Below are positions 351 through 64,000 of a DNA stretch of 64,000 nt, one piece after another; position 1 is the first letter of the stretch, and each line of letters begins with the position of its first letter. The translations under genes and the position numbers were made by a program. Source of the DNA: a virus. Taxonomy: Duplodnaviria > Caudoviricetes. The notes beneath the pieces are model-generated. The model searched no databases. It saw nothing but the letters and a program-made list of their open reading frames with translations, and was not told where the DNA came from. The stretch is taken from positions 8,402 to 72,401 of IMG/VR virus record IMGVR_UViG_3300032007_000073; one strand, 5' to 3'.

Positions 351-370
351 AAATAAAAGGCGGTAAAAAA

Positions 371-673
371 ATGGGTGTATTAACATGGGCTCAAAGATTT
401 GTTTCAAGAGTAAGATGTTATCAAAGAGTATTTAAAAAGGATAATCCGGATGTTAAAGCGGTGTTATGTGATTTAGGGAGAATTGCTCCGGTAGATCCGA
501 CAAGTAAGATTGCAGAGCCGTACGATGCAAATAAAATAAAGCTTTATATTATGATCGGCAGAAGGCAAGTTGTATCTCATATCTTAGCAAAGATAAATAT
601 GACGGAAGAAGAATTAAGCAATATTATTAAGCAAGAACAGTTGAAGCAGCAGCAAGAATCTTTTAAAGGATAA
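371..673 (+). CDS. Bbp19-like small phage protein
   Basis: YQRVF...VKAVLCDL...GRRQVVSHIL pattern; the usual position directly after podovirus portals. Confidence 0.7.
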   Translation: MGVLTWAQRFVSRVRCYQRVFKKDNPDVKAVLCDLGRIAPVDPTSKIAEPYDANKIKLYIMIGRRQVVSHILAKINMTEEELSNIIKQEQLKQQQESFKG

Positions 674-677
674 AAAT

Positions 678-1559: not shown

Positions 1560-1569
1560 GGGGGTTTTT

Positions 1570-2133: not shown

Positions 2134-2141
2134 GTTATAAC

Positions 2142-5570: not shown

Positions 5571-5593
5571 TTTAACGGCAAAGGAGTTTTGAA

Positions 5594-7318: not shown

Positions 7319-10300
7319 TGAACAGCGAAGAAATTTTTAATAATATCAAAAATAATACAAGAACTACTGTAACAAAAGAGTTTGATCCGCAAGAAGTATT
7401 GAAAAGTATAGGATTGGATAGAACACAAGATATAGATAAAAATGTTGCGGATCAGAAGGTAGAGCCGCAATATGTTGATGCTGATAAGCCGAAATTTGTG
7501 CAACCGGAAAGAAGAAGTTATTTTGTTGCCGGAAATGCTAATAATAACGAAATAAATACTACCGCACAAAGACCTAACGAAATTGAGTATGAAGCGGATG
7601 TTGTTGATGATGAGAAGAAAAAAGATAATTATTTTGGATTGTCTAAACTTGCTACAAATAAAAAAGATATTGTTAAAAATGCTTTAAAGTATGTTGTGCA
7701 AGCTCCGAACTTGATACAAAATGCTGCAAATACTATCGGTATGTTTACCGGTAAAAGCGGCGAAGATGTTATTAAAGAAGGTGTTAGAGGTTTTGCCGGA
7801 AGTACTGTTGATTTTGCAAGTGCTATGACAAGATTTTTCGGACAGAATTATATGTATTTTAAGGGTATGAAAGATAAGTTGATAGATGAAGCTGCTAATA
7901 TAGGCAGTGTTTTGACCGGTGGAGAAGATTTTAGTGATGATATAAAACAAAAATATACAGATTTTTATAACAGAATTGACAGACAGACACAAGAGTTTAA
8001 AGATAAAACAGAAAGATTTTTGCAATATACAGGTATAGGTAAAACAGATAAAGACGGATTTATTTATGATTTGGTTGGCGGCGGTGCTTCTTTGTTGTAT
8101 GCGATTGGAGCAACGGTTGTAACTAAAAGCCCGGCATCTGCTGCTGAAGTGTTTGGAGCTTATCAGTACCAAAGTTTGTATGAAGAAGGTATTGAAAAAG
8201 GGTTTTCTCCTATAAAAGCAAGAAGCATAGGTGTTGCCGGTGGTGCGGCAGAAGGTGCTTTAGAGCTTGTAGGGTTGCATGTTTTGATTGAAACTCTTGC
8301 GGCAAGAAAAAGTTTTGCAAAGATTTTAAAATCGGCTGCGACTGAGTTTATTCAAGAAGCTTCGCAACAAGGTGCGGAAGAAATATTAGCAACTACTTCC
8401 GGGATGAGAACTGAAAGTGTAAGCGAGATACTTGCTAATGTTGGGTATGCCGGTTTGATTGGTGCTTTGATTGGTGGCGGCAGTGCTACCGTAAGCAATA
8501 CAAGATTTGTGCAAAAAATGATTAGTGATAGTGCAACAAAAGAGCTTATAAATATCGGTGTTAAAGATGAGTATGCCAAACAGATGGTAAATAATATGTT
8601 AGATTTTTCCGTAAGCCCGCAAGTTGCCGATGAGTTAAACAGTATGCTTAAAGATGAGCAAAGCCCGGTAACTTATAAAAATGCTGATCCGAGAGAAACT
8701 TATAAAGAGTTTGGTGATACAGTTAAAAAAGCTTTAGATCCGCAACAGAAAAGAGGAGTTGAGCTTGAATTTTTGCAAGAAAAGAAAAAGAAAATACAAG
8801 AGTATGCGGATGCTTTAATTAACAGCGGTAAGGTTGCAAACAAAGATGAAGCTTACAGGCAAGCGGAAAATGCTGTAAGTTTTTATGATGATTTAGTTAT
8901 GGAAGCTTACAATCAAGACAATATAAGACCTGCCGAATATTATAAAAGGTTTAATGTTAATGCACAGAGTGGAGATATTGAAACAGACGAAAGAAATATT
9001 GATGATAATAACATAAGTTTGGATGACAGTTTTAATCCTATAGATTTTGATGAAACGGAAAGGGCTAAGTATGAAGCAGAGATTGAAGGGTACGAAGATT
9101 GGTTAGCGGATGAACAAAAAAGAAGCGGTATTAGAAATAATTTTAAAACACAAAAAAATATTCTTGCCGATATGGGTATAGGCAAGATCAGGAAGCTTGA
9201 TAAGGGTAATGACAGGTACGGAGAGTATGAAGCTTTAAGTCCGAGAATCAAAAGCTCTTTTTTTACGGATGTGCCTACGGCTATGACATGGGATGAGGCA
9301 GAACATATATTGCAGCAGCATAACGGCGACAGTGCTGATATTTTTGATTATTTTGATACGATTGATAAAAGTGTACCTGTAGGGCAAGAGGGATATTTAC
9401 AAAAAGGAATTTTCAATAAAGTTTTGGCTAAAGAGAAAGAAGATATAAAACAGAAAGCTGTTGCAGACGGTACATTTTTGAAAGCTCCGAACGGTAAAGA
9501 CAGTAATTTGCCGGAGCAGCTTTGGTTGGTCGTTAGAACAAAAGCTTTTAAAAATTGGTTTGGTGATTGGTTGAACGATCCACAAAATGCAAGTAAGATT
9601 GTGGATGAGAACGGAGAGCCGAAAGTTTGTTATCATGGAACACCACTAAGTAGGAAACAGAAAACAAAAAATACCGGATGGTACACAGACGAAAACGGAG
9701 AAGAACATTATCGTAGGCAGGAAGCACCATTTAATATTTTTAGAGGCGGTGCATATAATGGTTTGATATTTTTCTCTACTGATAGAGCAAAAGCAAAAGA
9801 AATTGCTAATTATAGAAGTATGCATATTCAAGATGATGAAAAAGGAAATGAACAATGGACTGAGGAAGGATATGTTTATGATGTATTTCTAAATTCTAAA
9901 AATCCGTTAAATGTTGCAAATAAGAAAGTTGTAAATGAAATTCTTGATAGCATTGGTAATATTGAAGCATACGATTTTTATACTAACAAATTAACGAAAA
10001 TAACAAAAGATGAAGCGGCTGAGATATTGTCCGGAAATAACTCGTGGATGGTTGCAGAAACAAAACAATTCCTTGATGCAATTAAGGCACAAGGATATGA
10101 TGCTTTGCAGGCAAAGGATGAAGGTGTTGAATATACAGCTGTATTCAAACCGAACCAAATAAAATCTATAAACAACAGAGGTACATTTGATACAAATAAT
10201 CCGGATATATATTATCAAGCTGCATATCATGGTACTCCGCACAGATTTGATACTTTTTCTACCGATAAGATAGGTACGGGAGAAGGAGCACAAGCTCATG

Positions 10301-13300
10301 GGTGGGGTTTGTATTTTGCAGAGAATAAAGATACGAGCGAAAAATACAGACAAGCTTTGTTATCTAAAAGATTGGGTGTTCCTTTATGGAATAGTAATAT
10401 AGAAGGAAATATATATGAAATTGAAGGTAAAAAGAATTTAAAAGAAATAAGTAAGCTTTTAAGTACAGAAGAAACAAATGAAGCAGTGTTAGAAGCAACA
10501 GAAAAAAACAACTACAAACCTATAAAAGATTTATTAAAAAATACAATAAAATACTTACAAGAGAATATTAATAATGAAGATAGAGAACAAATAGAAGGTA
10601 TAGACGATAAAAAATTATTAGAAGAATTGCAAAGTATAGATATAGATAATATTAAAATAACACAAGATAAAGGACAAACTTTTAAGGTAGATATACCGGA
10701 AAACGATGTGTTGTTAGACGAAGATAAAACTTTTGAAGAACAACCGGAAAAGGTACAAAAAGCATTAAAAGAAATCGCAGAAAAAGAACTTGAAAAAGAT
10801 GTGCAAACTGATTTTTTAAAAGGGTACGAGTATGAAATAAAATATCAAGAAGAACATCCCGAAGCAAAAGATTTTAATCTTAGTGCAGAAATAAATAACC
10901 TTGCGAAATCCGGAAAAGAAAGAACAATAGAACTTATTAAAAAATACAACTTTAATGAAGAAAGGCAAGTAAAAATAGATTTTATAAATTCTATAAAAAA
11001 TATTGATGATTTTATAATTAGCAGCAAACCTATTGATTTTAAGAATTATAAAGGAGAAGATTTTACAGGTAAAGAAATATATGATGCTATAACATTTAAT
11101 TTGAAAGGTAAAGATGCAGATCGTAAGGAAGCAAGTTTATTATTAAACAAATACGGTGTAAAAGGTATAAGTTATAACGGCGGTATTGACGGTAGAGCTT
11201 ATGTAATATTTGATGATAAAGCTGTAAAAGTTTTAGAGAAGTTTTATCAAGAACAGCAGCAAGAGCAGCCGAGAGGGAGTACTACGATTTACGACAGACA
11301 ATATTTTATTGATTTGTTCAGTGCTTCCGACAAGAGTACATTGTTGCATGAAACAGGACATGTGTTTTTGAGTGAGATACTTTATTTTGCAAGATCTAAA
11401 AATGCTTCTAAAAAAGTTTTGGAAATTAAAAAGAAGCTTGATGAGTGGTTGGGTGAGCCGGAAGATAACGGCAGATATTCTACAAGGCAACAAGAGTTGT
11501 TTGCGACAAGTGCCGAAGCTTTCTTTAGAGAAGGTAAAGCTCCGACTGCTAAACTTAAAACTGTGTTTGAAAGATTTAAAAAGTGGTTAAGTGATATATA
11601 TGACAGAATTAAAGATGATTTGCCGAAGATTAACGATGATGTTAGAGAGTTGTTTAATACAATCTTGAGCAGAAGTTATGATGTGCCGGACAGTAATATT
11701 TATGCCGGTAAAGAAAGTGCTATTAAAGAAGTTATTAAAAATATTCAAGAAGGCAGAGCGAGCGAAGTTGACGGTATAACTATTGATGATGTGTACAATT
11801 TGTTAAATGTTGCATACACAAGAAAGCCGAGTAAACCTTCCAAAAACTTAAAACAGTTATTAAATGATAAAAATATTTACGACTTTAATGAGTTGAATAA
11901 AGCCGGTGCGGATACCGTATTGCAAATTTTAAAAGACGGCGGATATGTTAAAGAAGATGCTACGGCGGAAGCTGCGGTTGAACTTGCAAAAGCCGCACTT
12001 GACGGGAATCCTGTTTACAGGTTAGCGGATCAGTGGAGAGTTGCAGGCGATATTGATTTTGCAAGAAATCTGCGAGTTTTGGAGAAGGTTATAGAGTTTA
12101 GCCAGATAGACAGCACTTTGGAAAAGATATTATCCTTGCAAGAAGAAGGGTACAGAAATGTGGAGCAGGGCGATGTTGATAAGGTGCAAGATGAGTATAA
12201 AAGGTTGATGAGTGCGGATGTTAAAGAAGCTAAAAAGATTGTGGAAGATATAATTAATCGTTTGCATAAAAAAAGATTTATTGACAGGGCTGCACAAAAG
12301 CAGATGATTAATGATTTAAAGTTTTCTGCTACGGCAGAAGAAATACAAGAGAGTGTGTTAAATGTTATTGAAGATTTGCAAGATGAAATTAAGTTGGTTA
12401 AAGAGCAGTTAAGGAATCCGAGAAAGCCGATAGTTAGAAAAGATAAAACTGTTTTGCCGCCGAAAAATGCTACGGAAGAAGAAAAGAATAATTATAAGAA
12501 GTATATGAGAAAACAGATAAACAGATTGTTGAAGCAGGCACTTCCGAGAAAACAAAATCAGCAGAAGTTTTCTAAGTTTGACGAGCAGACACAAAGATTT
12601 TTTACGGACCTTGAAAAGTATAACAAGATGACTATTGAGCAAGCTCAAGGAGAGTTGTATCAGAGAGCGACAAGTATTATTGATGATGAAGGTGTTGGAT
12701 TGGATAATTATGAGAAAATGAAAAATATGTTTTTATCTTATAAGGCTAATAAGGTAAATCAGAATACGACCGAGTTTTATAAGCAGCTTTATGATAATTT
12801 GATGCAGATTAATGTGTTTGGCAGAAATGCTAAAGAGATTGAAGAAACATTAAAAAAAGAGCAAATACAGAAAGATATAAATGATTTGGTGGTTAACATT
12901 GAAGATAATAAAAGTAAAAACGGGTTAACTGCCGGAGTAAAGAAACAGTATATAAAGTGGTTAGGTAATTGGTGGAGTACCATAAATGCTATTGCCGGAA
13001 AGAAGCAAGCTGATAAAGATAGTTTGGAAAGAATTGAAATTGATATTTTTAACAAGAATTATGAAACGACAGAAAACTTAAAAACAAAATGTGCTGCTGC
13101 TTTAGGTTTGAAAAATGCTACCGATTTGGATATGACCGTTAACAGATATTTGAACGAAGAATATACTTATGAAGAATTGGATGCAAGAAGCGGTACAAGT
13201 AATGCGGTTAAATTGAATAAGATGCAGCTTATATGTTGTTATATTTGGATGAAAAATGACAACTTAAAAGAGAGAATTGTAAGAGCTTTTGGTAATGTAC

Positions 13301-14853
13301 AGATTATGGATATGATGGATAAGCTCACAATTCAAGATAAAAAGTTTGGTGATGAATTACAAAAAGCAGTTGCTTCGTTGTATGACGATATTAACAAGGT
13401 GTATTTAAAGATGTACGGGTTGGATATGCCGCAAGCAGAAAATTATTTCCCTTCTTCTGTTGAAAGGATACAAGGTAATATGGATTTGCTTAAAGATAAT
13501 ATAGGGCAAGTATCATCGCCCGGATTTATTAAGGCAAGAGTGCAAAGTAATTTACCGTTAATGAATTTTGGTAATCCGGTAAAGATAGCTTTAGATCATA
13601 TAACGAAAGTAAATCATTTTATTTATATGCAAGAAAAACTTGCAGATTTGAATAAGGTTTATAAAACTACTGTAGTTAAAAGGCATATAACTAATGCTTA
13701 CGGTGATAGAGTATATAAATATATTTTGCAAGTGTTAGATAATGCAAAGTTTTCTACCGTTGCAAGAACTATTGACGGTATAAGCGATATAGGTGATTAT
13801 TTAGTTAACAATTATGTGTTAACTAAAATTGCTGTTAAGCCGAGTATTATGATTAAGCAGTTGTTATCGTGCATAAACTATGCGGAAGATATGAGTAGTG
13901 TAAAATGGTTTGAAGGGTTTTTGAAAGGTGTTACAACTCCGAAAAAAGTTATTGATTTTATGATGAAAAACAGTAAGTATTGCCAAAGCAGATTTGCAAA
14001 AGGCGGACAAACAGAAGCTTTGTTAAAAGCTATGGAAGGCAGTAATGCAACTTTTGCAAAGGTAAAAACTTTTAAGGGTATGCTTAGTTGGATGACAAGA
14101 GTTGGTGATATAGGTGCAATTATATTCGGTGGGTATCCGTATGTTGTGGATCAGATGAGCAAGGGTGTATCTTTGAAAACAGCTATTGAGAATTTTGAGA
14201 GAGCTACGATAAGAAGTCAGCAGGCAAGTTTACCTTCTACATTGAGTAATTTTCAGTATCGTGGTATGAATAGTTGGTTATATAGAGCTATGTTTGCTTT
14301 TGCTAATACTCCGAATCAGTACAGCAGAAAGATTGGTGATACGATGTATATGTATTTTCATGGCGATATAAATAAAAAGCAGGCGGCTAAAAATTTATTG
14401 ATTTACGGTGTGCTAAATTCTTTCTTATATACTTCGTTTACTTCTCTTGCGATTCTTTCCGGGTTGGTTAGCGGTGATTGGGATGATTTAAAAGATGATA
14501 TTATTATGAGTTTGATGCAGTGTAGTAATGTGTTGGCACTGCCGATAATATCGCAAGCTTATAACAGTTTTGTATCTAAAGTGGTTACAGGTGATTTTAC
14601 TCCGGATAAAGAGATACCGTTACTTGATGATATGGTTAAGATTATGAGGACCGCTACGAAAGATGAGCTTGAGTTTAAAGATTGGTTGACGATTATAGAT
14701 GAAGTTTCAAGTTTGGTTTTGGGTGTGCCGGTAAAGACATTGTACAATGAGTTTGTAGGATCTACCAAAGATTTACTTGACGGTGAGTATGGTAAGTTTG
14801 CAGTTAAGTTGTACGGTGCGACAGAAAGCAGGGCTAATAAAATTTTTGATTAA
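7318..14853 (+). CDS. Large internal virion / polyvalent protein (gp16-like position) with two ART-PolyVal-like domains and an HExxH metallopeptidase-like motif
   Basis: 2511 aa. 'KAPNGKDSNL...VRTKAFKNWFGDW...SKIVDENGEPKVCYHGT' (~9480-10200) and 'AYHGTPHRFDTFSTDKIGTGEGAQAHGWGLYFAEN' (~10220); 'STLLHETGH' (HETGH at 11347-11361); C-terminal hydrophobic segments typical of ejectosome proteins. Confidence 0.75.
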   Translation: MNSEEIFNNIKNNTRTTVTKEFDPQEVLKSIGLDRTQDIDKNVADQKVEPQYVDADKPKFVQPERRSYFVAGNANNNEINTTAQRPNEIEYEADVVDDEKKKDNYFGLSKLATNKKDIVKNALKYVVQAPNLIQNAANTIGMFTGKSGEDVIKEGVRGFAGSTVDFASAMTRFFGQNYMYFKGMKDKLIDEAANIGSVLTGGEDFSDDIKQKYTDFYNRIDRQTQEFKDKTERFLQYTGIGKTDKDGFIYDLVGGGASLLYAIGATVVTKSPASAAEVFGAYQYQSLYEEGIEKGFSPIKARSIGVAGGAAEGALELVGLHVLIETLAARKSFAKILKSAATEFIQEASQQGAEEILATTSGMRTESVSEILANVGYAGLIGALIGGGSATVSNTRFVQKMISDSATKELINIGVKDEYAKQMVNNMLDFSVSPQVADELNSMLKDEQSPVTYKNADPRETYKEFGDTVKKALDPQQKRGVELEFLQEKKKKIQEYADALINSGKVANKDEAYRQAENAVSFYDDLVMEAYNQDNIRPAEYYKRFNVNAQSGDIETDERNIDDNNISLDDSFNPIDFDETERAKYEAEIEGYEDWLADEQKRSGIRNNFKTQKNILADMGIGKIRKLDKGNDRYGEYEALSPRIKSSFFTDVPTAMTWDEAEHILQQHNGDSADIFDYFDTIDKSVPVGQEGYLQKGIFNKVLAKEKEDIKQKAVADGTFLKAPNGKDSNLPEQLWLVVRTKAFKNWFGDWLNDPQNASKIVDENGEPKVCYHGTPLSRKQKTKNTGWYTDENGEEHYRRQEAPFNIFRGGAYNGLIFFSTDRAKAKEIANYRSMHIQDDEKGNEQWTEEGYVYDVFLNSKNPLNVANKKVVNEILDSIGNIEAYDFYTNKLTKITKDEAAEILSGNNSWMVAETKQFLDAIKAQGYDALQAKDEGVEYTAVFKPNQIKSINNRGTFDTNNPDIYYQAAYHGTPHRFDTFSTDKIGTGEGAQAHGWGLYFAENKDTSEKYRQALLSKRLGVPLWNSNIEGNIYEIEGKKNLKEISKLLSTEETNEAVLEATEKNNYKPIKDLLKNTIKYLQENINNEDREQIEGIDDKKLLEELQSIDIDNIKITQDKGQTFKVDIPENDVLLDEDKTFEEQPEKVQKALKEIAEKELEKDVQTDFLKGYEYEIKYQEEHPEAKDFNLSAEINNLAKSGKERTIELIKKYNFNEERQVKIDFINSIKNIDDFIISSKPIDFKNYKGEDFTGKEIYDAITFNLKGKDADRKEASLLLNKYGVKGISYNGGIDGRAYVIFDDKAVKVLEKFYQEQQQEQPRGSTTIYDRQYFIDLFSASDKSTLLHETGHVFLSEILYFARSKNASKKVLEIKKKLDEWLGEPEDNGRYSTRQQELFATSAEAFFREGKAPTAKLKTVFERFKKWLSDIYDRIKDDLPKINDDVRELFNTILSRSYDVPDSNIYAGKESAIKEVIKNIQEGRASEVDGITIDDVYNLLNVAYTRKPSKPSKNLKQLLNDKNIYDFNELNKAGADTVLQILKDGGYVKEDATAEAAVELAKAALDGNPVYRLADQWRVAGDIDFARNLRVLEKVIEFSQIDSTLEKILSLQEEGYRNVEQGDVDKVQDEYKRLMSADVKEAKKIVEDIINRLHKKRFIDRAAQKQMINDLKFSATAEEIQESVLNVIEDLQDEIKLVKEQLRNPRKPIVRKDKTVLPPKNATEEEKNNYKKYMRKQINRLLKQALPRKQNQQKFSKFDEQTQRFFTDLEKYNKMTIEQAQGELYQRATSIIDDEGVGLDNYEKMKNMFLSYKANKVNQNTTEFYKQLYDNLMQINVFGRNAKEIEETLKKEQIQKDINDLVVNIEDNKSKNGLTAGVKKQYIKWLGNWWSTINAIAGKKQADKDSLERIEIDIFNKNYETTENLKTKCAAALGLKNATDLDMTVNRYLNEEYTYEELDARSGTSNAVKLNKMQLICCYIWMKNDNLKERIVRAFGNVQIMDMMDKLTIQDKKFGDELQKAVASLYDDINKVYLKMYGLDMPQAENYFPSSVERIQGNMDLLKDNIGQVSSPGFIKARVQSNLPLMNFGNPVKIALDHITKVNHFIYMQEKLADLNKVYKTTVVKRHITNAYGDRVYKYILQVLDNAKFSTVARTIDGISDIGDYLVNNYVLTKIAVKPSIMIKQLLSCINYAEDMSSVKWFEGFLKGVTTPKKVIDFMMKNSKYCQSRFAKGGQTEALLKAMEGSNATFAKVKTFKGMLSWMTRVGDIGAIIFGGYPYVVDQMSKGVSLKTAIENFERATIRSQQASLPSTLSNFQYRGMNSWLYRAMFAFANTPNQYSRKIGDTMYMYFHGDINKKQAAKNLLIYGVLNSFLYTSFTSLAILSGLVSGDWDDLKDDIIMSLMQCSNVLALPIISQAYNSFVSKVVTGDFTPDKEIPLLDDMVKIMRTATKDELEFKDWLTIIDEVSSLVLGVPVKTLYNEFVGSTKDLLDGEYGKFAVKLYGATESRANKIFD

Positions 14854-14877
14854 AATATTTTTTAAGGGGGTAGTGTA

Positions 14878-15168
14878 ATGAGTACTACTGCGATGAAGTT
14901 TGTAGATTTAGTTAAAGACAGTGTTGCTGTTGAGCAGGCAATAAGGCACGAAGGAAGAAACAATGTTATTTCCGTTAGCGGTATCACCGGGAACGGTATA
15001 TTGAAATTTGAAGTGTCTGTTGATGACGGTACAACATGGGTAGAAGATTCGTCTTTGGAGTTTAGCGAAGATGGTGTTAAAGTGTTACATAATGCTCCGG
15101 CAATTCTTAAAGCTAAGTTGGATGATGTAACGGATGCATCAGCTATAGCAGTACAGTTAGGTTATTAA
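14878..15168 (+). CDS. Small virion/tail-fibre-associated protein
   Basis: 96 aa, beta-rich, good RBS; positional counterpart of 61241-61516. Confidence 0.5.
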   Translation: MSTTAMKFVDLVKDSVAVEQAIRHEGRNNVISVSGITGNGILKFEVSVDDGTTWVEDSSLEFSEDGVKVLHNAPAILKAKLDDVTDASAIAVQLGY

Positions 15169-15181
15169 GGGGGTGTTTGAT

Positions 15182-15517
15182 ATGGGTATGGAAAAAGGTA
15201 GCGGTTTAAATTTTGCTTCCGCCGGAAACAACAGCGGTAAAGTGATTATAGACGGGGACAATACTAATCTTAATGTTAAGGGTGGAGAAGTATATAAGTT
15301 TGGTGTAATAGATGAGTTGGTATTGACAACAGTATCAACTTCCGACAATGAAAGTGTTATTTATTTTACTACGGACAGTACTTTTACTTTTACGGATAAC
15401 AGCGGTATCAGATGGGGTAACGGAAATGAGTTGCCGACCTTTGAAGCAAACACTGTGTATTGTATTGTTGTCCGCAACGGTCTTGCAGAGATAGATAATT
15501 TTGGCAGTGCTTCATAA
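15182..15517 (+). CDS. Tail fibre-associated protein ending in the shared '...RNGLAEIDNFGSAS' domain
   Basis: ATG 15182 after a G-rich RBS. About 90 C-terminal aa align by eye with the C-terminus of 61519-62517. Confidence 0.65.
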   Translation: MGMEKGSGLNFASAGNNSGKVIIDGDNTNLNVKGGEVYKFGVIDELVLTTVSTSDNESVIYFTTDSTFTFTDNSGIRWGNGNELPTFEANTVYCIVVRNGLAEIDNFGSAS

Positions 15518-15530
15518 AGGGGGTGCGACT

Positions 15531-16127
15531 ATGAGTATGTTTTACGAGTTGATGATGAAGAAAAAGGGGATACCTTCAAGATACCAAGAAGTAGAGTATA
15601 TTGAAAGCACAGGCACACAATGGATAGATACAGGAATAGTTCCAAGTGCAACTATTCAATTTGTTTGTGATGTTGAATTTACAGATATATTGGTTGGCAG
15701 AGTTGGAACAATTAAAAGTATTCCAGGGAAAAATTATGCAAATAGACACTATTTCGGAGTTCTTTCGTCTAGATTTATAGGTGCAAACGGAAATATATAT
15801 AATCATTCAATCACTAATGCAAACACGAATAGACATATTTTTAGTTTAGACAATAAAGGGTTGTCAATAGACAATGTTCTAGTATATTCGCATACAGGAG
15901 AATATGAAACAAATTTAAGTTTTTATTTATTTGCTTGCAACGACAACGGAAGTGCAAATTATTATTCAAAGGTAAAAATATACAACTCCCAAATCTATGA
16001 CAACAACAGATTAGTTCGTAATTTTATCCCTGTTTACGATACATTAACTAACAAGTATGGTATATGGGAAAGTGTGCAGGGCAAATTCTGCGGTAATGCA
16101 GGAACAGGAGATTTTATAGGAGCATAA
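15531..16127 (+). CDS. Putative receptor-binding / tail fibre tip protein (lectin-like)
   Basis: Likely start ATG 15531 (MSMFYELMMKKK, the same N-terminus as 62530). 'YQEVEYIESTGTQWIDTG...LVRNFIPV...GIWE.VQGKF.GNAGTGDF' is a motif I recognise from phage tail-tip proteins. Confidence 0.65.
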   Translation: MSMFYELMMKKKGIPSRYQEVEYIESTGTQWIDTGIVPSATIQFVCDVEFTDILVGRVGTIKSIPGKNYANRHYFGVLSSRFIGANGNIYNHSITNANTNRHIFSLDNKGLSIDNVLVYSHTGEYETNLSFYLFACNDNGSANYYSKVKIYNSQIYDNNRLVRNFIPVYDTLTNKYGIWESVQGKFCGNAGTGDFIGA

Positions 16128-16136
16128 GGGGGAAAT

Positions 16137-16544
16137 ATGTTTGGTAAAATAATTGACGGAAAACTTGTAATTGCAGGGCAGATAGTAAAAGACGGAAACA
16201 CAACGATAACAAATCCAACGGAAGAAAAGTTGAGAGAGTTAGGTTATAAAGAAATTGAATATACAGAAAAGCCGACATTTAACAAAGAAGAAGAAAAGTT
16301 GCAAGAGATTTATACTGACGGAGATAAGATAACAGTTAGTTATGAAGTTGTAGCACTAACGACAGAAGAACACAATGCTATTATTCAAGCCGAAATTGTT
16401 GCAGAAGAAAACAAGATTACACCGAGAAATATTCGTAATGCAATTAAGGGAGATACTTTTGCACTTGATAAGATAACGGAAATTGAAAGCAATATTTATC
16501 AGTTAAGACAAAAGTTAAGAACGGTAGAAGCCAATGAAGAATAA
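16137..16544 (+). CDS. Tail fibre assembly/chaperone-like protein
   Basis: 135 aa, follows the RBP gene; near-identical homologue at 63628->64000. Confidence 0.6.
   Translation: MFGKIIDGKLVIAGQIVKDGNTTITNPTEEKLRELGYKEIEYTEKPTFNKEEEKLQEIYTDGDKITVSYEVVALTTEEHNAIIQAEIVAEENKITPRNIRNAIKGDTFALDKITEIESNIYQLRQKLRTVEANEE
16380..16506 (+). repeat. 127-bp exact direct repeat, copy 1 (copy 2 = 63874-64000)
   Basis: Base-by-base identical; the base before differs (16379 t vs 63873 a). Offset 47,494 bp. Confidence 0.95.
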
Positions 16545-16767
16545 TTTAAAAAGATTATTTACTTTACCGAACATAGTAATAATATTATCTGCATTATATA
16601 TCTGCTTTCAAATTTACGAATTGCCGAGTAAAGTGTCTATTTTGGAAAACAGAGTTACTGCAGTAGAAAAAGAGAATATAACTCTTAAAACAAAATTAGA
16701 CCTTTGTCTAAATGCAATTTACGATATCAGGTCGGATATAAAGCAGTTGTTGAAAGATATCAAGTGA
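16534..16767 (+). CDS. Small membrane-anchored coiled-coil protein (lysis region, holin/antiholin-like)
   Basis: One N-terminal TM segment plus a coiled coil, at the start of the lysis cluster. Confidence 0.45.
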   Translation: MKNNLKRLFTLPNIVIILSALYICFQIYELPSKVSILENRVTAVEKENITLKTKLDLCLNAIYDIRSDIKQLLKDIK

Positions 16768-16915
16768 TAGGGTTGATATATAAGTAGTATTGCTCTTTCT
16801 TGAACACAATAACTATCGGCAACGAAGTTTGTTGATGCTCAAAAAACTCCATAAATATTTCAAAAGTATAACTGTTGCAGGGCTTCCTATCGGCTCTGCA
16901 CAAATAGGAGATAAA

Positions 16916-17149
16916 ATGTTTAAGAAATTAATTTACGATTTACTTTACAAAGCATTAGAATTTGTTTTAGTGGGTTTTTTAGGTTTTTGGATGTTTATAT
17001 TCATTGAGAAAACTTTTGCTACATTATGGGCAATTATAGGGCTTTCATTGATATTCTATTTCTTCAGTCCTATCATAAAGCCATATATTGACGAATTTAG
17101 AAAATGGATATATTCAAAGATAACAAAGAAAAATGAAAAAGATAATTAA
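16916..17149 (+). CDS. Holin candidate (2 TM)
   Basis: ATG 16916 after an AGGAG RBS; two hydrophobic segments and a basic C-terminus. Confidence 0.45.
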   Translation: MFKKLIYDLLYKALEFVLVGFLGFWMFIFIEKTFATLWAIIGLSLIFYFFSPIIKPYIDEFRKWIYSKITKKNEKDN

Positions 17150-17426
17150 TTATATCAAGTTAATGTTGCAAGATAGGGGTGGAACTCCGAACACAAAACT
17201 GCATTTCGGAAGTTTGTTTGCAATAGTTATGATAGTAGGTTTATTTGTGTCGGTAGATAATGCTTTATACCAAACATTTACTTTTGCGACATTATGCTTA
17301 TTTGGTATATCGGCAGTAGATAATTTAACTGCTCCGAAGATAGAAATAAACAAAAAAGAAACAAAAGAAACAAAGACGGAAATAGATGTTGACGGAATAG
17401 CCAAAACAATTAAAGGGAAGAAATGA
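17133..17426 (+). CDS. Holin candidate (2 TM, charged C-terminal tail)
   Basis: Hydrophobic helices 'LHFGSLFAIVMIVGLFV' and 'FTFATLCLFGISAV'; highly charged tail. Confidence 0.5.
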   Translation: MKKIINYIKLMLQDRGGTPNTKLHFGSLFAIVMIVGLFVSVDNALYQTFTFATLCLFGISAVDNLTAPKIEINKKETKETKTEIDVDGIAKTIKGKK

Positions 17427-17487
17427 TAGATTTTTACGATGATAAAGAGTATGAGTTAATTTATACAAGTTTCGGAACAGGAGCAAA

Positions 17488-17613
17488 ATGAAATATTGTG
17501 TTAATTGTATGAACTCAATAATAAAGTATAGTGGCAACGGATATTATTGTTGGTGCAGTAAATACAATAAGGAAGTTAGATTTTATGAGAAAGGTTGTCA
17601 GGAGCATAAGTGA
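17488..17613 (+). pseudogene. Disrupted small Cys-rich (CxxC) gene
   Basis: MKYCVNCMNSI* stops at codon 12. An offset frame reads KYSGNGYYCWCSKYNKE, then the original frame resumes LDFYEKGCQEHK*. Consistent with two compensating indels in a gene resembling 18025-18168. Confidence 0.4.
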
Positions 17614-17909
17614 GTGAAGTTAAAAACATTATTATTAGCATTATTATCTTTATTCTTTGGTCTGTCGGTTGCTTTTTGTCAGGATACATACTATCTAACC
17701 GACAAGCAATTAAACGAATTGAGCAATCAAATAACGAACTTGCAGAAAAACAACGAGAACTTGACGAACTTATTAAATCAACAGACGATAGAATTAGAAA
17801 CATTAGAGAACAGTTACTTGCAGAAATATCTAACAATGGAGCAACAACAAAAGAATTATCAAAACTTGTTGAACAGATACGAAAGCAGAGAATCAATATA
17901 CAGATATAG
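17610..17909 (+). CDS. i-spanin (Rz)-like protein
   Basis: GTG start, N-terminal TM, long coiled coil; upstream of the endolysin. Confidence 0.6.
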   Translation: MSEVKNIIISIIIFILWSVGCFLSGYILSNRQAIKRIEQSNNELAEKQRELDELIKSTDDRIRNIREQLLAEISNNGATTKELSKLVEQIRKQRINIQI

Positions 17910-17964
17910 CATTATCGGTGCTTTGGTGTTAGGTCTTTTAATCGGTGTAGTGGTAGCAAAGTGA
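17614..17964 (+). CDS. Second spanin-like protein overlapping 17610-17909 (signal peptide, coiled coil, C-terminal TM)
   Basis: GTG 4 nt downstream of the first start, in another frame; MKLKTLLLALLSLFFGLSVAFC signal-like N-terminus and C-terminal 'SIIGALVLGLLIGVVVAK'. Confidence 0.55.
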   Translation: MKLKTLLLALLSLFFGLSVAFCQDTYYLTDKQLNELSNQITNLQKNNENLTNLLNQQTIELETLENSYLQKYLTMEQQQKNYQNLLNRYESRESIYRYSIIGALVLGLLIGVVVAK

Positions 17965-18024
17965 TACCATATTTCCTAAACGGGAAAAAAGGTTATTTCA
18001 AGAAAATAGGGAAAATTGAAATAA

Positions 18025-18328
18025 ATGATTAAGTGTATTAATTGTCCTTACTTTGTGCAAAGTAATAACGGATATGAATATTGCTCATACTATTGTTGCG
18101 ATATAGATAGAGTTATATTGCTTAGTATGTGCCATTGGATAGAACAAGATGATAATAATAAAAACTAATATGGAAAAAATACCAACAAGTTGTAAAGAGT
18201 GCGACCTTAGAGTTGTAGCACCGAAGATGATAATGTGTCCTGTTTTGCACGATTGGATAGAGCCGTTTGAGTTTAAGAACGGTAAAGTAAAACTTGAAAA
18301 TTGTCCTTTGGAAGAACAAAAAAAATGA
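18025..18328 (+). CDS. Two small Cys-rich proteins (18025-18168, 47 aa; 18170-18328, 52 aa)
   Basis: Translated by hand: MIKCINCPYF...YCSYYCCD...; MEKIPTSCKEC...MCPV...NCPLEEQKK. The second is coupled to the endolysin by ATGA. Confidence 0.55.
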
Positions 18329-18747
18329 AACTAACTAAAAATTTTACTTTTGAGGAACTTACAAACACAAGCCACAAAGATTTATTGGCAGACAATATCT
18401 ATTATGCCGTAAACAATATGGATAAAGTTAAAGAGTTAGCTTTATTTGCTCAGGAAGTAAGAGAATTGTTAAATGTACCGATGACTGTAACAAGTGCCGT
18501 TAGATGTCCTTCGCTTAATACCAAAGTAGGTGGAACACCTACAAGCCAACATCAAAAAATAGAAGCAATAGATTTTATCCCTGCAAAAATATCATTGGAA
18601 AAAACATTTGATATTATAAGATATTCAAAACTCAAATTCGGACAATTAATAATTGAAAAGTCAGGAAATAAAGAATGGATACATATAAGTATCGGTAATA
18701 AAAGAGAAACTCTTTATTTTAACGGCAAAAAATATATAAAATTTTAG
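18325..18747 (+). CDS. Endolysin, peptidase M15A family (Zn peptidase)
   Basis: MKLTKNFTFEELT...VTSAVRCPSLNTKVGG..TSQH...AIDF...QLIIE...WIHIS (SxH...D...H zinc ligands). Confidence 0.88.
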   Translation: MKLTKNFTFEELTNTSHKDLLADNIYYAVNNMDKVKELALFAQEVRELLNVPMTVTSAVRCPSLNTKVGGTPTSQHQKIEAIDFIPAKISLEKTFDIIRYSKLKFGQLIIEKSGNKEWIHISIGNKRETLYFNGKKYIKF

Positions 18748-19601
18748 GTAAGCCATTTATTCTTATATATCTGTTCTATTACATAATCAGGCTTTAACTC
18801 TTTCATACATCTTGCTTGACAAGGTAAAGCATCTTTTGGCATTTTAAGTCTATATTTGTTGCTACCCCATTCATAGCAAGGCTCACAATAATTAGCTCTT
18901 AAATTCAAATTAAACGACCTTCCTTGATTCTCTATGGCAGTAGAGCCAAACAAAACAACTGATTTTCCACCTATATGTTGATTTAAGATTACTAATCCAC
19001 CTTCAATATCAATATGAAACAAAGCTCTTTTCATTACTTCGGCAGACTGTTGTATCGTAAGTTTATCTACCAAGTTTAAAACAGTATGTTTAATCGGAAA
19101 ACAACTTGCTCCACTACCTATTTGAACACAAGGAATCCCTATTTTCAAAACCAGTTCACTCCAATACTCAACCGACCAAGCCTTTGTGCATATTACATTC
19201 TTATCTAACGGATTTCCGCTTAAACGACCGTATCCGTTGTTTACTGTAACAAATTTCTTAGGTAAGACTAAATCTAATTTCGTTTTCCAATTTAAAGGAA
19301 CAATAGTATCAAAAGAGAAATCTATCCCTGCGTTTCTTGCAATACATTCATCACATTTATCTGTTTCATAAGTCTTTGGCAAATCGTAATTACAGAAATT
19401 CTTATATCCTATAAGACCACGCATTTTAGACCTATCTAACTCTCTTTTGAAACCTTCTCTTTCAAAAAGAAACCAATATCGGTCTGAATATATTGTGATA
19501 TTGTTTGTTGGATAGTCTTTCTGTTTACAATAAGTTAAAAGGAAAGCCCTTGCATTTAGAGCATCTCCTAATCCGTAAATAATTCCTGCTTTAGTTATCA
19601 T
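18744..19601 (-). CDS. Glycosyltransferase family 9 (heptosyltransferase-like, GT-B)
   Basis: 'KAWSVEYWSELV...CVQIG...NLVDKLTIQQSAEVMKRALFHIDIEGGLVILNQHIGGKSVVLFG' is the GT9 C-terminal signature. Start 19601 inferred from RBS spacing and ATGA coupling. Confidence 0.75.
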   Translation of the reverse strand: MITKAGIIYGLGDALNARAFLLTYCKQKDYPTNNITIYSDRYWFLFEREGFKRELDRSKMRGLIGYKNFCNYDLPKTYETDKCDECIARNAGIDFSFDTIVPLNWKTKLDLVLPKKFVTVNNGYGRLSGNPLDKNVICTKAWSVEYWSELVLKIGIPCVQIGSGASCFPIKHTVLNLVDKLTIQQSAEVMKRALFHIDIEGGLVILNQHIGGKSVVLFGSTAIENQGRSFNLNLRANYCEPCYEWGSNKYRLKMPKDALPCQARCMKELKPDYVIEQIYKNKWLT

Positions 19602-19894
19602 TCCCATTCTCCTGCTTTTTCTCTTAATATTAAAAATGCAGTATATAAATTTTTGCAAATAGGGTTAAGTTCTTTATTATTGATAATTTCGCATAATTCG
19701 CCTTTTATAAAAGCATATTTATATTTGCAAGAAAGAATCTGTATAACATTTGTTTTTAAATCTTTATCATAACGAATATTAACATATTTATTAAGTGCAG
19801 AATTATAAAGAAAATTTAAAATTTCTCCTTCGTTTTCAGGAATAATATCTTTTGATATTGAGCCATCTTCAAAAGTTATTCTTATGTTTTTCAT
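19598..19894 (-). CDS. Hypothetical protein
   Basis: 98 aa ORF, translationally coupled on both sides. Confidence 0.6.
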   Translation of the reverse strand: MKNIRITFEDGSISKDIIPENEGEILNFLYNSALNKYVNIRYDKDLKTNVIQILSCKYKYAFIKGELCEIINNKELNPICKNLYTAFLILREKAGEWE

Positions 19895-20568
19895 AATTCC
19901 TCCAAATACTTTTTAATGTTTCCGTCATAAGACCTTGAGCCTATCGAGAACCATTCTTTGTCTTTTAACGTATCCTTAAGTTCTTCCATAGGATAGTTTC
20001 TTATTAGTTTACAATCTTTTGTGAATTTTTTGTTGTCGCTTTCAAACCAATTTCCGTATAAGATTCTCGGATTGAGTTCTCGATTATACTTGTTCACATA
20101 CTCCCAATACATAGGGTCAATTTCAAGTATCTTTTTCTTGTTATAAATTATAGGACAATGCACTCCATAATGTAAAGTAGGTTTTCCGTGTTGCTTTAAG
20201 AACTCTTTTGTATTTAATATCTCTTTTAAATAATTATTAATAACTTGATAGTCCGGAATTTCTCCTGAGTGATATATAGGATAATTCTCAATATCAATTG
20301 GTTTAAGAATAAACACATCGTCCATCATATACAAGAAATCTTCAGAGATATCTGAATTTTCTGCAACCTCGCACAACTTACGGAATACATTTCTTGTCCT
20401 TGCCATCGTATCCTTAAAAGGTATAAACTCAATTCCTTCTATATTAGGGTTTTCTCCGATAACAAATATTCTATCGAACTTTGCATACTTCTTTATTAAC
20501 TTAATTGAAGTTTTTATTTCTGCATTTTGGTACAATGAGCCAGTTCCTAAGGTATATAGAATATCCAT
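19891..20568 (-). CDS. Stealth-like / glycosyltransferase-like protein
   Basis: 'AEIKTSIKLIKKY..FDRIFVIGE' and 'ISEDFLYMMDDVFILKP' resemble Stealth CR2-type (ELRYSLRS / FLYMNDD) motifs. Confidence 0.55.
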   Translation of the reverse strand: MDILYTLGTGSLYQNAEIKTSIKLIKKYAKFDRIFVIGENPNIEGIEFIPFKDTMARTRNVFRKLCEVAENSDISEDFLYMMDDVFILKPIDIENYPIYHSGEIPDYQVINNYLKEILNTKEFLKQHGKPTLHYGVHCPIIYNKKKILEIDPMYWEYVNKYNRELNPRILYGNWFESDNKKFTKDCKLIRNYPMEELKDTLKDKEWFSIGSRSYDGNIKKYLEEL

Positions 20569-29650: not shown

Positions 29651-29920
29651 TTACCCCCATTTAAGTTTTTTTATTCTGTCTATTGTTTCACGTGAAACAA
29701 ATCTTTTAAAGTATATGCTTGGTGGTTTTATACCTTTATCGTGTACTAATCTGTGATGCTTGGCACATAGCATAATCCCATTCTCAAGCATATACCTTGT
29801 ATTTTTGTATTTTCTTGTGTTAATCCAATGATGTGCCTCTCCGACTATACTGTTACATCCTGCAAATTGGCACGTTTTATCTCTTTCTTTAATCAATTTA
29901 GACCATTCTGCGTCTGTCAT
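29651..29920 (-). CDS. NinG-like / HNH protein
   Basis: 'WSKLIKERDKTCQ..GC...EAHH...TRY.LENG..LC..HH'. Confidence 0.7.
   Translation of the reverse strand: MTDAEWSKLIKERDKTCQFAGCNSIVGEAHHWINTRKYKNTRYMLENGIMLCAKHHRLVHDKGIKPPSIYFKRFVSRETIDRIKKLKWG
29684..29699. promoter_or_regulatory. parS: parS site, perfect 16/16 (TGTTTCACGTGAAACA)
   Basis: Exact match to the bacterial chromosomal parS palindrome; encodes 'VSRET' in 29651-29920. Confidence 0.8.
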
Positions 29921-30954
29921 AGTATATTAACCTTTTTGCATTTGCCTTGTTCTTTATCCCATTCAACCAACTCTACGGTCATTCCTTTTTGATAATCTTT
30001 TTTATCATAAGTCTTTACCATAGTTCCGTCTGTAAAAGTCAATGTCGATAATGTGTAATCTCTACCCGCATTTGTCTTGCCTGTCTTTTGCATAATATCA
30101 CTTATAACAAAGATATTGTCTGTTATATCTACTTCGGTTGCAGTATCTCCTTTAATCTCTTGTTCTACAACTTGTTCTTGTTGAGCAATAACATCGGCTT
30201 TATTCGGTTGAATTTCTTTTGGCATTTCTTTTGGTTGGTCGTAATCTATATGGACAGGTTCTTGTTGAACATCGAAATTCTTGTTGTCTATATCTTCCAT
30301 TATTGCTATCTTGGGGTCGCCTATAAATAAAGTCTTACATAATCTACGAACAACCGCCTTCTTTGCCATCTCTCCAAACCAATCATTCCATACAAAAGCA
30401 GTTTTTGCCTTACCTTTTATCTTTAATACCTCATCTTTACTCATAGTTTCAATGAATGAATACTCTTTACCTTTATCTGTGTATTGAATATAAGCATAAA
30501 CACCAACCATATCCTTGATATGTGCAAATGGATTAGCAACTTTGTGAGTATATTTTGCCTTACCATCTATTTTTTCTACGGTAAAAACATCTCCCGTATA
30601 AACCAACTCTGCCTTAACTTGTGCCGTAGGATATATTTCCTTAATCCTTGAAATAAATCCCTTAAAACCAATTTGATACTCAATCTTGCTACCATACTTA
30701 ACCACATAAGCGAGTTGCCTTTTATCAACAGGTATCCCAGTATCCAAAGAAGCCTTAAAAGCCTCTCTTATACTCTGCGGGTCTAAATTTGATAATGGTT
30801 GTTTACTTGCATCCAACATCGCTTTTGTTGCATAAGCAAACGAAATCAATTTGCTTTGCAATTCTTGTTGATTTAATCCTGTTGCTTTAATTAAAATAGG
30901 AACTTGCTCTTGTATCGCATTGTTAAAAGTTTGTACTACTAATTCTTGAGCCAT
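29917..30954 (-). CDS. recT: RecT/Red-beta family single-strand annealing protein
   Basis: 'AYVVKYG...YQIGFKGFI', 'VGVYAY', 'W.DWFGEMAKKAVVRRLCK'. Confidence 0.85.
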   Translation of the reverse strand: MAQELVVQTFNNAIQEQVPILIKATGLNQQELQSKLISFAYATKAMLDASKQPLSNLDPQSIREAFKASLDTGIPVDKRQLAYVVKYGSKIEYQIGFKGFISRIKEIYPTAQVKAELVYTGDVFTVEKIDGKAKYTHKVANPFAHIKDMVGVYAYIQYTDKGKEYSFIETMSKDEVLKIKGKAKTAFVWNDWFGEMAKKAVVRRLCKTLFIGDPKIAIMEDIDNKNFDVQQEPVHIDYDQPKEMPKEIQPNKADVIAQQEQVVEQEIKGDTATEVDITDNIFVISDIMQKTGKTNAGRDYTLSTLTFTDGTMVKTYDKKDYQKGMTVELVEWDKEQGKCKKVNIL

Positions 30955-54639: not shown

Positions 54640-54647
54640 GAGAAAAT

Positions 54648-57746: not shown

Positions 57747-57755
57747 GAGTAAAAA

Positions 57756-59979: not shown

Positions 59980-59991
59980 AAGGAGTAAAAT

Positions 59992-61230: not shown

Positions 61231-61240
61231 GAGGAAGAAA

Positions 61241-61516
61241 ATGGCGAACATTGGACAGTTTAAAGTAGGAAAAGTATGGAAAAAGTTGGACGAAGTAACG
61301 GGATATTCTTTTGTGGCAGATAGTTCTTATACTATCCAAAATAAAGGATATCAACCGTTATATCTTTGTATTAAAGCAGATGCTCCAACGACAGACAAAA
61401 TTGGTTTTATTATTCAACAAAACGAAAAGGTCGGTTATACTTGTGAAAGTGGCAATTTTCTTTGGATAAGGTCAGAGAAAAATGTTGCAGAATTTAATGT
61501 TGCAGAGGGGGTATAA
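61241..61516 (+). CDS. Small tail-fibre-associated protein
   Basis: 91 aa; positional counterpart of 14878-15168. Confidence 0.55.
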   Translation: MANIGQFKVGKVWKKLDEVTGYSFVADSSYTIQNKGYQPLYLCIKADAPTTDKIGFIIQQNEKVGYTCESGNFLWIRSEKNVAEFNVAEGV

Positions 61517-63627: not shown

Positions 63628-64000
63628 ATGTTTGGAAAACTTATAGACGGAAGATTAGTAGTTGCAGGAAGAATAGTAAAAGACGGAAACACAACGATAA
63701 CTAACCCAACGGAAGAAAAGTTAAAAGAGTTAGGTTATAAGACGATAGAATATACAGAAAAGCCGACATTTAACAAAGAAGAAGAAAAGTTAGTTGAAAG
63801 ATATACCGAGCAAGAAGATGTTATAGTTGTTGATTATGATATAGTAGCACTAACGACAGAAGAACACAATGCAATTATTCAAGCCGAAATTGTTGCAGAA
63901 GAAAACAAGATTACACCGAGAAATATTCGTAATGCAATTAAGGGAGATACTTTTGCACTTGATAAGATAACGGAAATTGAAAGCAATATTTATCAGTTAA
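63628..64000 (+). CDS. Tail fibre assembly/chaperone-like protein (3'-truncated), homologue of 16137-16544
   Basis: MFGKLIDGRLVVAGRIVKDGNTTITNPTEEKL...; patchy then complete identity to the first copy. Confidence 0.75.
   Translation, partial: MFGKLIDGRLVVAGRIVKDGNTTITNPTEEKLKELGYKTIEYTEKPTFNKEEEKLVERYTEQEDVIVVDYDIVALTTEEHNAIIQAEIVAEENKITPRNIRNAIKGDTFALDKITEIESNIYQL
63874..64000 (+). repeat. 127-bp exact direct repeat, copy 2
   Basis: Identical to 16380-16506 up to the window edge. Confidence 0.95.

Follow-up and report, generated by a model that had tools for sequence, protein, structure and literature searches.

A 64,000-nt stretch of viral DNA (the window; bases 8402-72401 of the 72,401-bp IMG/VR record IMGVR_UViG_3300032007_000073) contains two copies of a tail-fibre slot built from three genes: an adaptor, an interchangeable payload and a conserved 135-aa gene. 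The two slot copies belong to different genomes: an assembler joined two phages, here called A and B, at a repeat they share. The explanation we favour, and in which we place considerable confidence, is that both phages carry the same three-part slot and that this slot moves between phage backbones. A sequence-only reading of the window had proposed a plug-in slot for receptor-binding genes that is exchanged across virion morphotypes, and comparison with other loci bears this out: the flanks are reused with many payloads, the payloads do not track the backbone, and sequence relationships support movement of the slot, or of the payload alone, between unrelated backbones. The comparison covers ~30 loci fetched around members of the 135-aa family, all of them metagenomic contigs; when a profile was used to scan IMG/VR and GTDB genomes for loci, it was too degenerate for the task and returned two loci and one locus.

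One record, two phages

The last 127 nt of the record duplicate window positions 16380-16506 exactly, so that the repeat has the size of the assembler's k, 127 being the largest k of metaSPAdes as run by the Joint Genome Institute (JGI). Because the record stops on this 127-mer, the contig ended at a graph node that it had already passed, and window 16507-64000 closes as a 47,494-bp circle. Phage B is therefore a complete myovirus of 47,494 bp, circular or permuted (window 16507-64000), and phage A is a side branch or fragment that occupies record positions 1-24,780 (to window 16379).

Independent assemblies close B on itself. The JGI contig L015 (3300037696; 23,685 bp) is 100% identical to window 53628-64000 and passes from there into 16507-20506, where 2 of 4,000 positions are mismatched, and the Logan contig L016 also bridges 64000 to 16507, with 0 mismatches in 1,677. 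The IMG/VR record G002 (46,529 bp; CheckV 98%) is collinear with window 16092-64000 and circularly permuted, is without any match to window 1-15400, and carries the large terminase of B (85% identity), not that of A. In the ENA assembly ERZ27256887, A and B form separate contigs of 24,317 and 46,647 bp, both ending at the window equivalent of 16520, which is 141 nt past the merge point (16380+141-1), a position that would fit an assembler run at k = 141; the sizes of these contigs suggest that the identical path of A and B extends over ~1.13 kb, from 16380 to ~17508.

The two parts also avoid opposite 4-base palindromes. The A backbone (record 1-23573, window up to 15172) has no TCGA, ACGT or CTAG and 44 GATC sites, and its CCGG count is 93 against 18 expected, whereas B (window 16507-64000) has one GATC, no CATG and 56 TCGA sites. 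This opposition suggests different restriction systems or methylation, although both phages recombine. Self-BLAST of the 72.4-kb record finds no repeats besides the two arms described below; the idea that A and B share their whole early region through a record-start repeat near 44.5 kb was rejected, as no such repeat appears.

Shared arms around unrelated payloads

Gene order in the slot is constant across the ~30 loci and at least six backbones, including two slots in a 300-kb phage, and the slot lies at the distal end of each tail module. A small backbone gene precedes the adaptor (...Y.I.I.NGLAEID.FG..), which is followed by a ribosome-binding site (RBS), the payload (MSMF[YH]ELMM[RK]KK) and the 135-aa gene (Table 1).

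In the left arm, A and B share an exact run of 44 nt, no longer. In it lie the end of the upstream gene, with its 12 final codons (...GLAEIDNFGSAS) and stop codon, and the ribosome site AGGGGGTG. Identity at the nucleotide level is 56-57% upstream in the body of the adaptor domain, 70% directly before the 44-mer, 100% within it and 71% across the following 41 nt. Both payload genes begin MSMFYELMMKKK, and their first 36 nt differ at 8 positions that leave every amino acid unchanged; past residue 12, BLASTP finds nothing in common between the 198-aa and 362-aa proteins. The right arm (16121-16506 versus 63612-64000) is 87.9% identical over 389 columns in a patchy fashion (83%, 90%, 58%, 97%) and terminates in the exact 127-nt run, with a mismatch directly before it; its second copy is truncated by the record end, precisely at the end of the 127-mer. 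The identical left arm, the recoded N-terminus, the unrelated enclosed genes and the patchy-to-perfect right arm had all been described in the sequence-only reading, and each of these descriptions stands.

A 44-mer or 127-mer repeat within 64 kb is far beyond chance. Exact copies of the 44-mer were not found elsewhere in IMG/VR; close variants occupy the same junction in 15 other loci, and a stand-alone 1,293-bp contig from another metagenome matches 15210-16502 exactly. The left arm is a conserved protein domain with two crossover zones, one after the N-terminal anchor of the adaptor (N-anchor) and one at the 44-mer.

Exchange between backbones

The flanks enclose 16 payload clusters in ~22 distinct loci. 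Clusters R1, R2 and R3 each occur on at least two backbones, and one myovirus backbone carries R2, R7 and R10. The same 135-aa protein (P0115) together with a 371-aa payload is common to the P22-like temperate podoviruses L037/L038, whose backbone has P22_portal, Terminase_6N and an integrase, and to the B-like myoviruses L039/L040, each pair coming from two separate assemblies. A single tract of 2,725 bp is common to L037 and L039 at 99.2%; it runs from a point 17 codons inside the adaptor through the payload, the 135-aa gene and two small lysis genes; outside this tract there is only a 78% match in the lysin. Between B and L039, by comparison, 6.7 kb of baseplate genes are 97.2% identical and the 91-aa gene plus N-anchor 94.8%; in the slot the adaptor domains are at 77%, the payloads are unrelated and the 135-aa genes are at 81%.

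On the podovirus side, L041-L043, which are of A type, retain the 96-aa gene together with the N-anchor and the lysis cassette; the adaptor domain and the 135-aa gene are both absent from them, indicating that A acquired the slot. The CCGG richness of A (3.9 per kb) ends at 15222, and the next 1,157 nt hold 0 sites where ~4.6 would be expected. The sequence-only reading had placed a change of codon style at ~15565; A does switch composition, at or after 15222, and the switch cannot be narrowed to the later position. The podoviral context of the slot of A recurs in a second assembly (ERZ27256887). Across loci, breakpoints cluster in three zones: directly behind the N-anchor with its linker; around the 44-mer, where the adaptor ends and RBS and N-peptide follow; and within the 135-aa gene or the earliest genes of the lysis cassette.

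The adaptor

The adaptors of A (111 aa) and B (332 aa) are alike only in a C-terminal ~93-aa domain (54% identity, E 4e-29) that can be aligned across 19 loci. Every adaptor consists of a backbone-specific N-anchor (~15 aa), a Gly-rich linker of GGSGGGGG type and then the conserved ~90-aa domain. The N-anchor types are MGMEKGSGLNFA in A-type podoviruses, MPLHFENMGFGG or MSIRIKKGIGN in myoviruses, and MSKGTLVKSF.KG in the P22-like group. The N-anchor of A is 70% identical to that of L042 over 23 aa, and L039 carries the N-anchor of B in a 116-aa adaptor without the insert. Longer adaptors, up to 1,251 aa, have additional modules ahead of the domain, and at least 101 such long forms exist, all unannotated. 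Within the insert of the B adaptor (window 61519-62238, +) lies a 'KYSGFANDKYL' motif similar to the 'GV.SGF..NYL' with which the LamG-like payload modules described below open; by analogy with the first receptor-binding protein (RBP) of branched systems, the B adaptor may itself carry a binding module.

The AlphaFold2 (AF2) model of adaptor A has a pLDDT of 83.7 and a beta-sandwich at residues 20-110. Its best PDB matches include TSP4 residues 58-181 (Z 6.0-6.2; for 7rfv, Z 6.2 with 98 residues aligned at a root-mean-square deviation, rmsd, of 6.4), the Klebsiella KP1 baseplate protein (Z 5.8; 9f4a, 81 aligned, rmsd 2.9), CpaA (6O38, Z 5.1) and StcE (4DNY, Z 4.3), scores that lie in the range the tool calls common and below its range of confidence. 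With Foldseek, T4 gp9 (1qex) gives a TMq of 0.44 and T4 gp10 (2fl8) an E of 1.7, and no XD2/XD3-like matches are among the PDB matches listed. Against the predicted viral structures of BFVD there are 42 matches at E <= 1e-3, mostly tail-fibre or tail proteins from all morphotypes. Pfam and PHROGs return nothing meaningful for the adaptor, both payloads and the 135-aa protein. A gp9/TSP4-XD1-like fold is a weak match for the predicted domain and a coherent lead.

Two variants of the arrangement were seen. In the B-like myovirus contig L022 (8549-9400), the adaptor is frame-shifted and lacks the first ~55 codons of the domain, whose end (...CIAIRNGFAEIDNFGSAS) persists out of frame and is followed by a normal MSMFHELMMRKK payload; this could be either a decaying slot or an assembly error. 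The jumbo phage L028 (a 300,445-bp IMG/VR contig) holds two complete slots, at 6067-10411 and 15719-20409, with adaptors of 752 and 1,251 aa, payloads of 550 and 211 aa, and a 135-aa gene copy for each; between the slots are two more large fibre-like genes with an EY[IL][EQ]S.GTQY motif.

The payload and its N-peptide

The N-peptide consensus MSMF[YH]ELMM[RK]KK heads all 16 payload clusters. Behind it come modules of at least two types, one running from 'EYIESTGTQ' to 'GTGDF.G' and the other LamG-like ('GV.SGF..NYL', often ending YIKINNKLWFNGQQA), which are found single, doubled or combined, one to three per protein. A protein identical to payload A occurs in the same podoviral context in ERZ27256887. 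The AF2 model of payload A (pLDDT 66) has weak ConA/LamG-like neighbours (1w0o, E 0.065, probability 0.95; perlecan LG3, E 0.1), and weak Pfam matches to ConA-like families for the B-type modules, and to Laminin_G_3 for the related L034 payload, go in the same direction. Since the structural neighbours of the modelled payload A are only ConA/LamG-like lectins, glycan binding is plausible, and the label 'receptor-binding' should be read as following from position and resemblance of fold.

What would the N-peptide do? Over its 12 codons, A and B differ by 8 synonymous and 0 non-synonymous changes (dN = 0), and where the adaptor ending has diverged, as in the jumbo and L005-type versions, the peptide paired with it has diverged too. 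A peptide that is fixed in protein while its codons drift, and that pairs with the adaptor ending, fits a protein-protein contact; the synonymous pattern and the analogy to known docking peptides support a putative docking of the N-peptide on the adaptor domain.

The 135-aa gene

The 135-aa family has at least 602 members in a set of 5.8 billion proteins and 222 clusters in the representative library, and is unnamed and without a Pfam domain. The protein has two separable halves, of which the C-terminal is the most conserved. A tblastn search of INPHARED phages gave no match, a PDB sequence search with the 135-aa profile gave chance-level matches only, and the Caudo_TAP/Tfa families (PF02413, PF16778, DUF4376) do not match any of six members even at E 10. 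Among remote relatives, 1 of 71 matches DUF4376 (3.7e-4), and some relatives of the N-domain belong to tail-fibre PHROGs; of the named clusters in the ESM Atlas, those closest are of Caudo_TAP type (feature similarity 0.87-0.89), which is a lead only.

The gene lies directly downstream of the payload in all loci, and payloads of different types go with one and the same protein (P0115) or with near-identical ones. It goes with the split adaptor/payload arrangement and not with any particular payload; in L041, the payload-A module is fused straight to the N-anchor, and neither an adaptor domain nor a 135-aa gene lies nearby. Because the gene is tied to the split arrangement and the fusion does without it, we favour a role in joining or assembling adaptor and payload over one in tip folding, and the label 'chaperone' given in the sequence-only reading should be read as following from position and fold-level likeness only.

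Phage backbones and neighbouring genes

Phage A is a podovirus with T7-like virion architecture, encoding small and large terminases, a T7-type portal (PF12236, 5e-72), a major capsid protein, and tail and internal proteins (phrog_394, phrog_376, a T7_gp14-like internal protein and a 2,511-aa internal protein). The last of these (window 7318-14853, +) has an ART-PolyVal Pfam match in its identical ENA copy. In L041-L043, homologues of the 96-aa gene occupy the same place, after an internal protein of ~2,300-2,500 aa. Phage B is a myovirus with an E217/Pam3-like baseplate; it and its relatives have the sheath, tube, sheath-initiator, baseplate-J and wedge families of E217/Pam3 type (Pfam). In the B relative G002, the large-terminase match (G002:C1:26857-28386, L010) contains two in-frame TGA codons, which could reflect a frameshift, an intron or recoding.

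Both RecT and RecE had been ascribed to this DNA in the sequence-only reading; the RecT-family protein is there, and RecE was not found. RecT has as its neighbour (window 30966-31721, -) a ParB-like nuclease (phrog_12305, 2e-29), not an exonuclease of RecE/lambda-Exo type, and a scan of 10 early proteins turned up no exonuclease.

Table 1. Features of the slots and their surroundings (window coordinates)
Feature	Coordinates	Strand	Remarks
96-aa gene	14878..15168	+	Podovirus-A backbone marker directly before slot; homologues at 41-88% identity
Adaptor A, 111 aa	15182..15517	+	N-anchor MGMEKGSGLNFA (~15182-15226), Gly/Asn linker, conserved domain (~15240-15514)
Left-arm core, exact 44-mer, copy 1	15482-15525	+	End of adaptor, stop codon, RBS
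Payload A, 198 aa	15531..16127	+	12-aa N-peptide (15531-15566), then one 'EYIESTGTQ...GTGDFIGA' module
135-aa slot gene, copy A	16137..16544	+	5' part A-specific; common with B from 16380 on
Exact 127-mer, copy 1	16380-16506	+	Identical to 63874-64000; podovirus path and myovirus circle merge here (assembly-graph node)
Small membrane and coiled-coil genes (77, 119, 97 aa)	16534..17426	+	Start of lysis cassette; equivalents in L037/L039 segment
RecT-family annealing protein of B	29917..30954	-	Candidate exchange catalyst; PF03837 8.8e-24, phrog_148 1e-33
91-aa gene	61241..61516	+	Myovirus-B backbone marker directly before slot; phrog_4770; also in L006, L015, L039, L040
Adaptor B, 332 aa	61519..62517	+	N-anchor MPLHFENMGFGGSGGGGG, inserted ~220-aa module, conserved domain (~62239-62514)
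Exact 44-mer, copy 2	62482-62525	+	Identical to copy 1
Payload B, 362 aa	62530..63618	+	N-peptide, two tandem 'GVxSGF..NYL' LamG-like modules, end ...INNKLWFNGQQG
Slot gene, copy B	63628..64000	+	Cut at record end; continues at 16507-16544 to a complete 136-aa protein (P0012)

The genes at the start of the lysis cassette probably belong to the right homology arm, because the 99.2% segment of L037 and L039 spans the equivalent 76-aa and 67-aa genes and because the contig sizes in ERZ27256887 would imply a shared A/B path of ~1.1 kb. Beyond them, two open reading frames (17610-17909 and 17614-17964, +) occupy nearly the same stretch in different frames; the first of the pair to be recognised is Rz-like (phrog_739, 7e-5), and the other starts like a lipoprotein in relatives, so the two look like an embedded Rz/Rz1-type spanin pair, and an endolysin follows at 18301-18747. 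The Rz-like match suggests a diderm host, and the names of the samples would point to rumen and buffalo gut. The only cellular-genome match, a 35.6-kb contig (L014) in a Bacteroidales metagenome-assembled genome, was read as a mis-binned phage contig because of its strong AGGGGG ribosome sites, which are atypical of Bacteroidota.

Discussion

How might the three parts work together? We propose that the adaptor would present, behind its backbone-specific ~15-aa N-anchor and Gly-rich linker, a ~90-aa beta-sandwich domain with which the chain ends, and that the payload would carry one to three interchangeable lectin-like modules on its 12-aa N-peptide. Because the adaptor chain ends directly after the domain, the distal face would be free, unlike that of XD1 in TSP4, and the N-peptide could dock onto it non-covalently; the payload would then bind a cell-surface glycan, and the 135-aa protein would aid the joining or assembly of adaptor and payload. 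Slots would be exchanged by homologous recombination during co-infection, a route that we infer from the RecT or Sak-type annealing proteins these phages encode. Taken to its full extent, this would be a universal RBP socket, in which an XD1-like C-terminal face captures the 12-residue peptide with the help of the 135-aa factor, and in which a change of ~15 anchor residues of the adaptor would fit any lectin-like payload to T7-like, P22-like, contractile or jumbo tails that infect one diderm host, a tentative proposal that may be true without our counting on it.

Several points weigh against the slot and docking model as a whole. The fold matches of the adaptor are weak (Z 5-6.2, Foldseek E >= 0.017 against PDB, a range that the tool calls common), the model of payload A is poor (pLDDT 66) and its lectin-like matches are weak as well (E 0.07). 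Neither Pfam nor PHROGs link the 135-aa protein to chaperones, and conservation in it is highest in the C-terminal half, unlike in Tfa-type chaperones, whose C-termini track and co-vary with the fibre tip. XD1 has been reported not to bind trimeric partners, so that docking here would be a new use of this domain. Lastly, all contexts are metagenomic contigs of uncultured phages, and the present record demonstrates that assemblers jump at precisely these arms.

Two alternatives concern the assembly itself. One real 72-kb genome, in which a single phage had two programmes for its virion and a pair of paralogous fibre slots, would suit a single IMG/VR contig that CheckV scores as 100% complete, yet the record end sits on an exact 127-mer repeat, L015 and L016 close B on itself, the 46.5-kb relative G002 holds the B part only, ERZ27256887 has A and B on separate contigs, and the two parts avoid opposite restriction sites; we give this reading practically no credence, and a single phage with two tail types was rejected on the same evidence of the 127-mer end, the closure of B, the B-only relative and the split contigs. 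A reading of the arms as purely an assembly artefact, with chimeric contigs mimicking a slot in several backbones and no biological exchange, can point to the record itself as a repeat-induced chimera and to several contigs that end precisely at the arms. Against it, the slot of A is not a copy of that of B, as their adaptor domains have 54% protein identity and their payloads are unrelated; the podoviral N-anchor and the adaptor domain of A lie in one intact open reading frame that is repeated in a second assembly; and L037/L038 and L039/L040 come from separate assemblies, share a segment at 99.2% and not 100%, and differ in their flanks on both sides. We therefore regard an artefact as highly improbable.

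Purifying selection on an old, vertically inherited attachment module, with payloads diverging in place, could also make the arms alike, and it agrees with a junction that is conserved in protein even in very distant versions (L005 and the jumbo phage L007/L028) and with the synonymous divergence of the N-peptide. However, synonymous sites are identical over 44 and 127 nt (probably ~1,100) in phages whose other genes have no DNA similarity, a P22-like podovirus and a myovirus have a 2.7-kb tract in common at 99.2% identity, payload clusters are scattered over backbones, and the slot of A is without the CCGG richness of its backbone (0 sites versus ~4.6 expected after 15222), which makes purely vertical descent very unlikely. 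We take more seriously, while still considering it unlikely, that exchange is real and the labels are wrong, the payload being a non-essential lectin-like decoration or a superinfection or adhesion accessory instead of a host-range determinant, and the 135-aa gene being the first gene of the lysis cassette. Neither protein has a family assignment, B encodes a separate 412-aa protein with tail-fibre PHROG matches just upstream, and the 135-aa gene adjoins the lysis genes and is co-transferred with them. On the other side, the predicted adaptor fold and its BFVD neighbours are those of tail-fibre modules, the slot is at the distal end of every tail module, and some remote N-domain relatives of the 135-aa protein are in tail-fibre PHROGs; moreover, A-like podoviruses with the same lysis cassette and without the split adaptor/payload have no 135-aa gene, and in the jumbo phage this gene follows both slots, far from lysis genes. 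A mobile tail-fibre slot shared by A and B thus remains our preferred explanation.

The design of an adaptor plus a docking peptide is already known, and our results add no new principle to it. In the K1E/K1-5/SP6 adaptor and in Klebsiella podoviruses of KP32/KP34 type, a docking protein is combined with an RBP that has a short N-peptide, of 7 or 11 residues in the K1E/K1-5/SP6 case (Latka et al. 2019, PMC6872550), and a recent report (PMC13352976) describes experimental validation of the anchor-branch docking-peptide design. The slot resembles these systems in having a putative tail-attached docking protein and a separate RBP with a short N-peptide, whose body is exchanged horizontally while the architecture stays constant. 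The docking site in the Klebsiella and K1-5/SP6 systems is, however, T4gp10 D2/D3-like and situated inside a full-size first RBP, whereas the candidate here is the C-terminal XD1-like domain of a ~110-aa adaptor. The docking peptide differs between groups of Klebsiella phages (PMC6872550), whereas one peptide/domain pair here spans T7-like, P22-like, contractile and jumbo backbones; the Klebsiella, SP6 and CBA120 systems known so far are each specific to a group. The payloads of those systems are depolymerases, whereas here they are lectin-like modules accompanied by a travelling conserved 135-aa partner gene, and the slot proteins are without sequence similarity to them.

In TSP4 of phage CBA120, the anchor domain comes first, then a GGGG linker (Gly76-79) and then XD1 (Chao et al., PMC8825819), an order that the adaptors share with their anchor, poly-Gly linker and predicted XD1-type beta-sandwich, within the limits of a weak fold match (Z 5-6.2). 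The TSP4-XD1 homologue set in Table 2 of that paper coincides with the gp9, gp10, CpaA and StcE matches of the adaptor model (PMC8825819). XD1 in TSP4 and T4 is said not to bind trimeric partners, XD2 and XD3 bind the partner spikes in TSP4 and gp10, and the branched complexes of CBA120 and G7C use gp10-like domains (PMC8825819). Unlike TSP4 and gp10, the adaptors described here would be without XD2 and XD3. T4 gp9, which is among the weak matches of the adaptor model, is the socket of the T4 long tail fibres.

Cassettes of a tail fibre and its assembly chaperone that are exchanged among unrelated phages are familiar from P2 H/G, Mu S/U, lambda stf/tfa and P1. There, the fibre and the small following gene co-move across families, with arms in the conserved fibre N-terminus and the chaperone, and each fibre is one long protein whose conserved N-terminal part is large. 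The 135-aa protein departs from Tfa cassettes in having no Caudo_TAP match and in the conservation of its C-terminal half. What differs here is the occurrence of the pair across four architectures, with a candidate XD1-like socket on a minimal adaptor, lectin-like payloads and a travelling partner gene.

For the study of viromes, the lesson is that such arms break or mis-join assemblies, as in this 72-kb '100% complete' record, which is one and a half phages. Neither the 135-aa family, with its at least 602 members, nor the long adaptors, with at least 101 forms, has a Pfam or PHROGs annotation. If the docking of peptide on domain is true, the 12-aa tag and its ~90-aa socket would make a compact pair for study and a natural standard connector for host-recognition proteins across four virion architectures, and such a connector would go some way towards explaining the spread of host range within a phage community.

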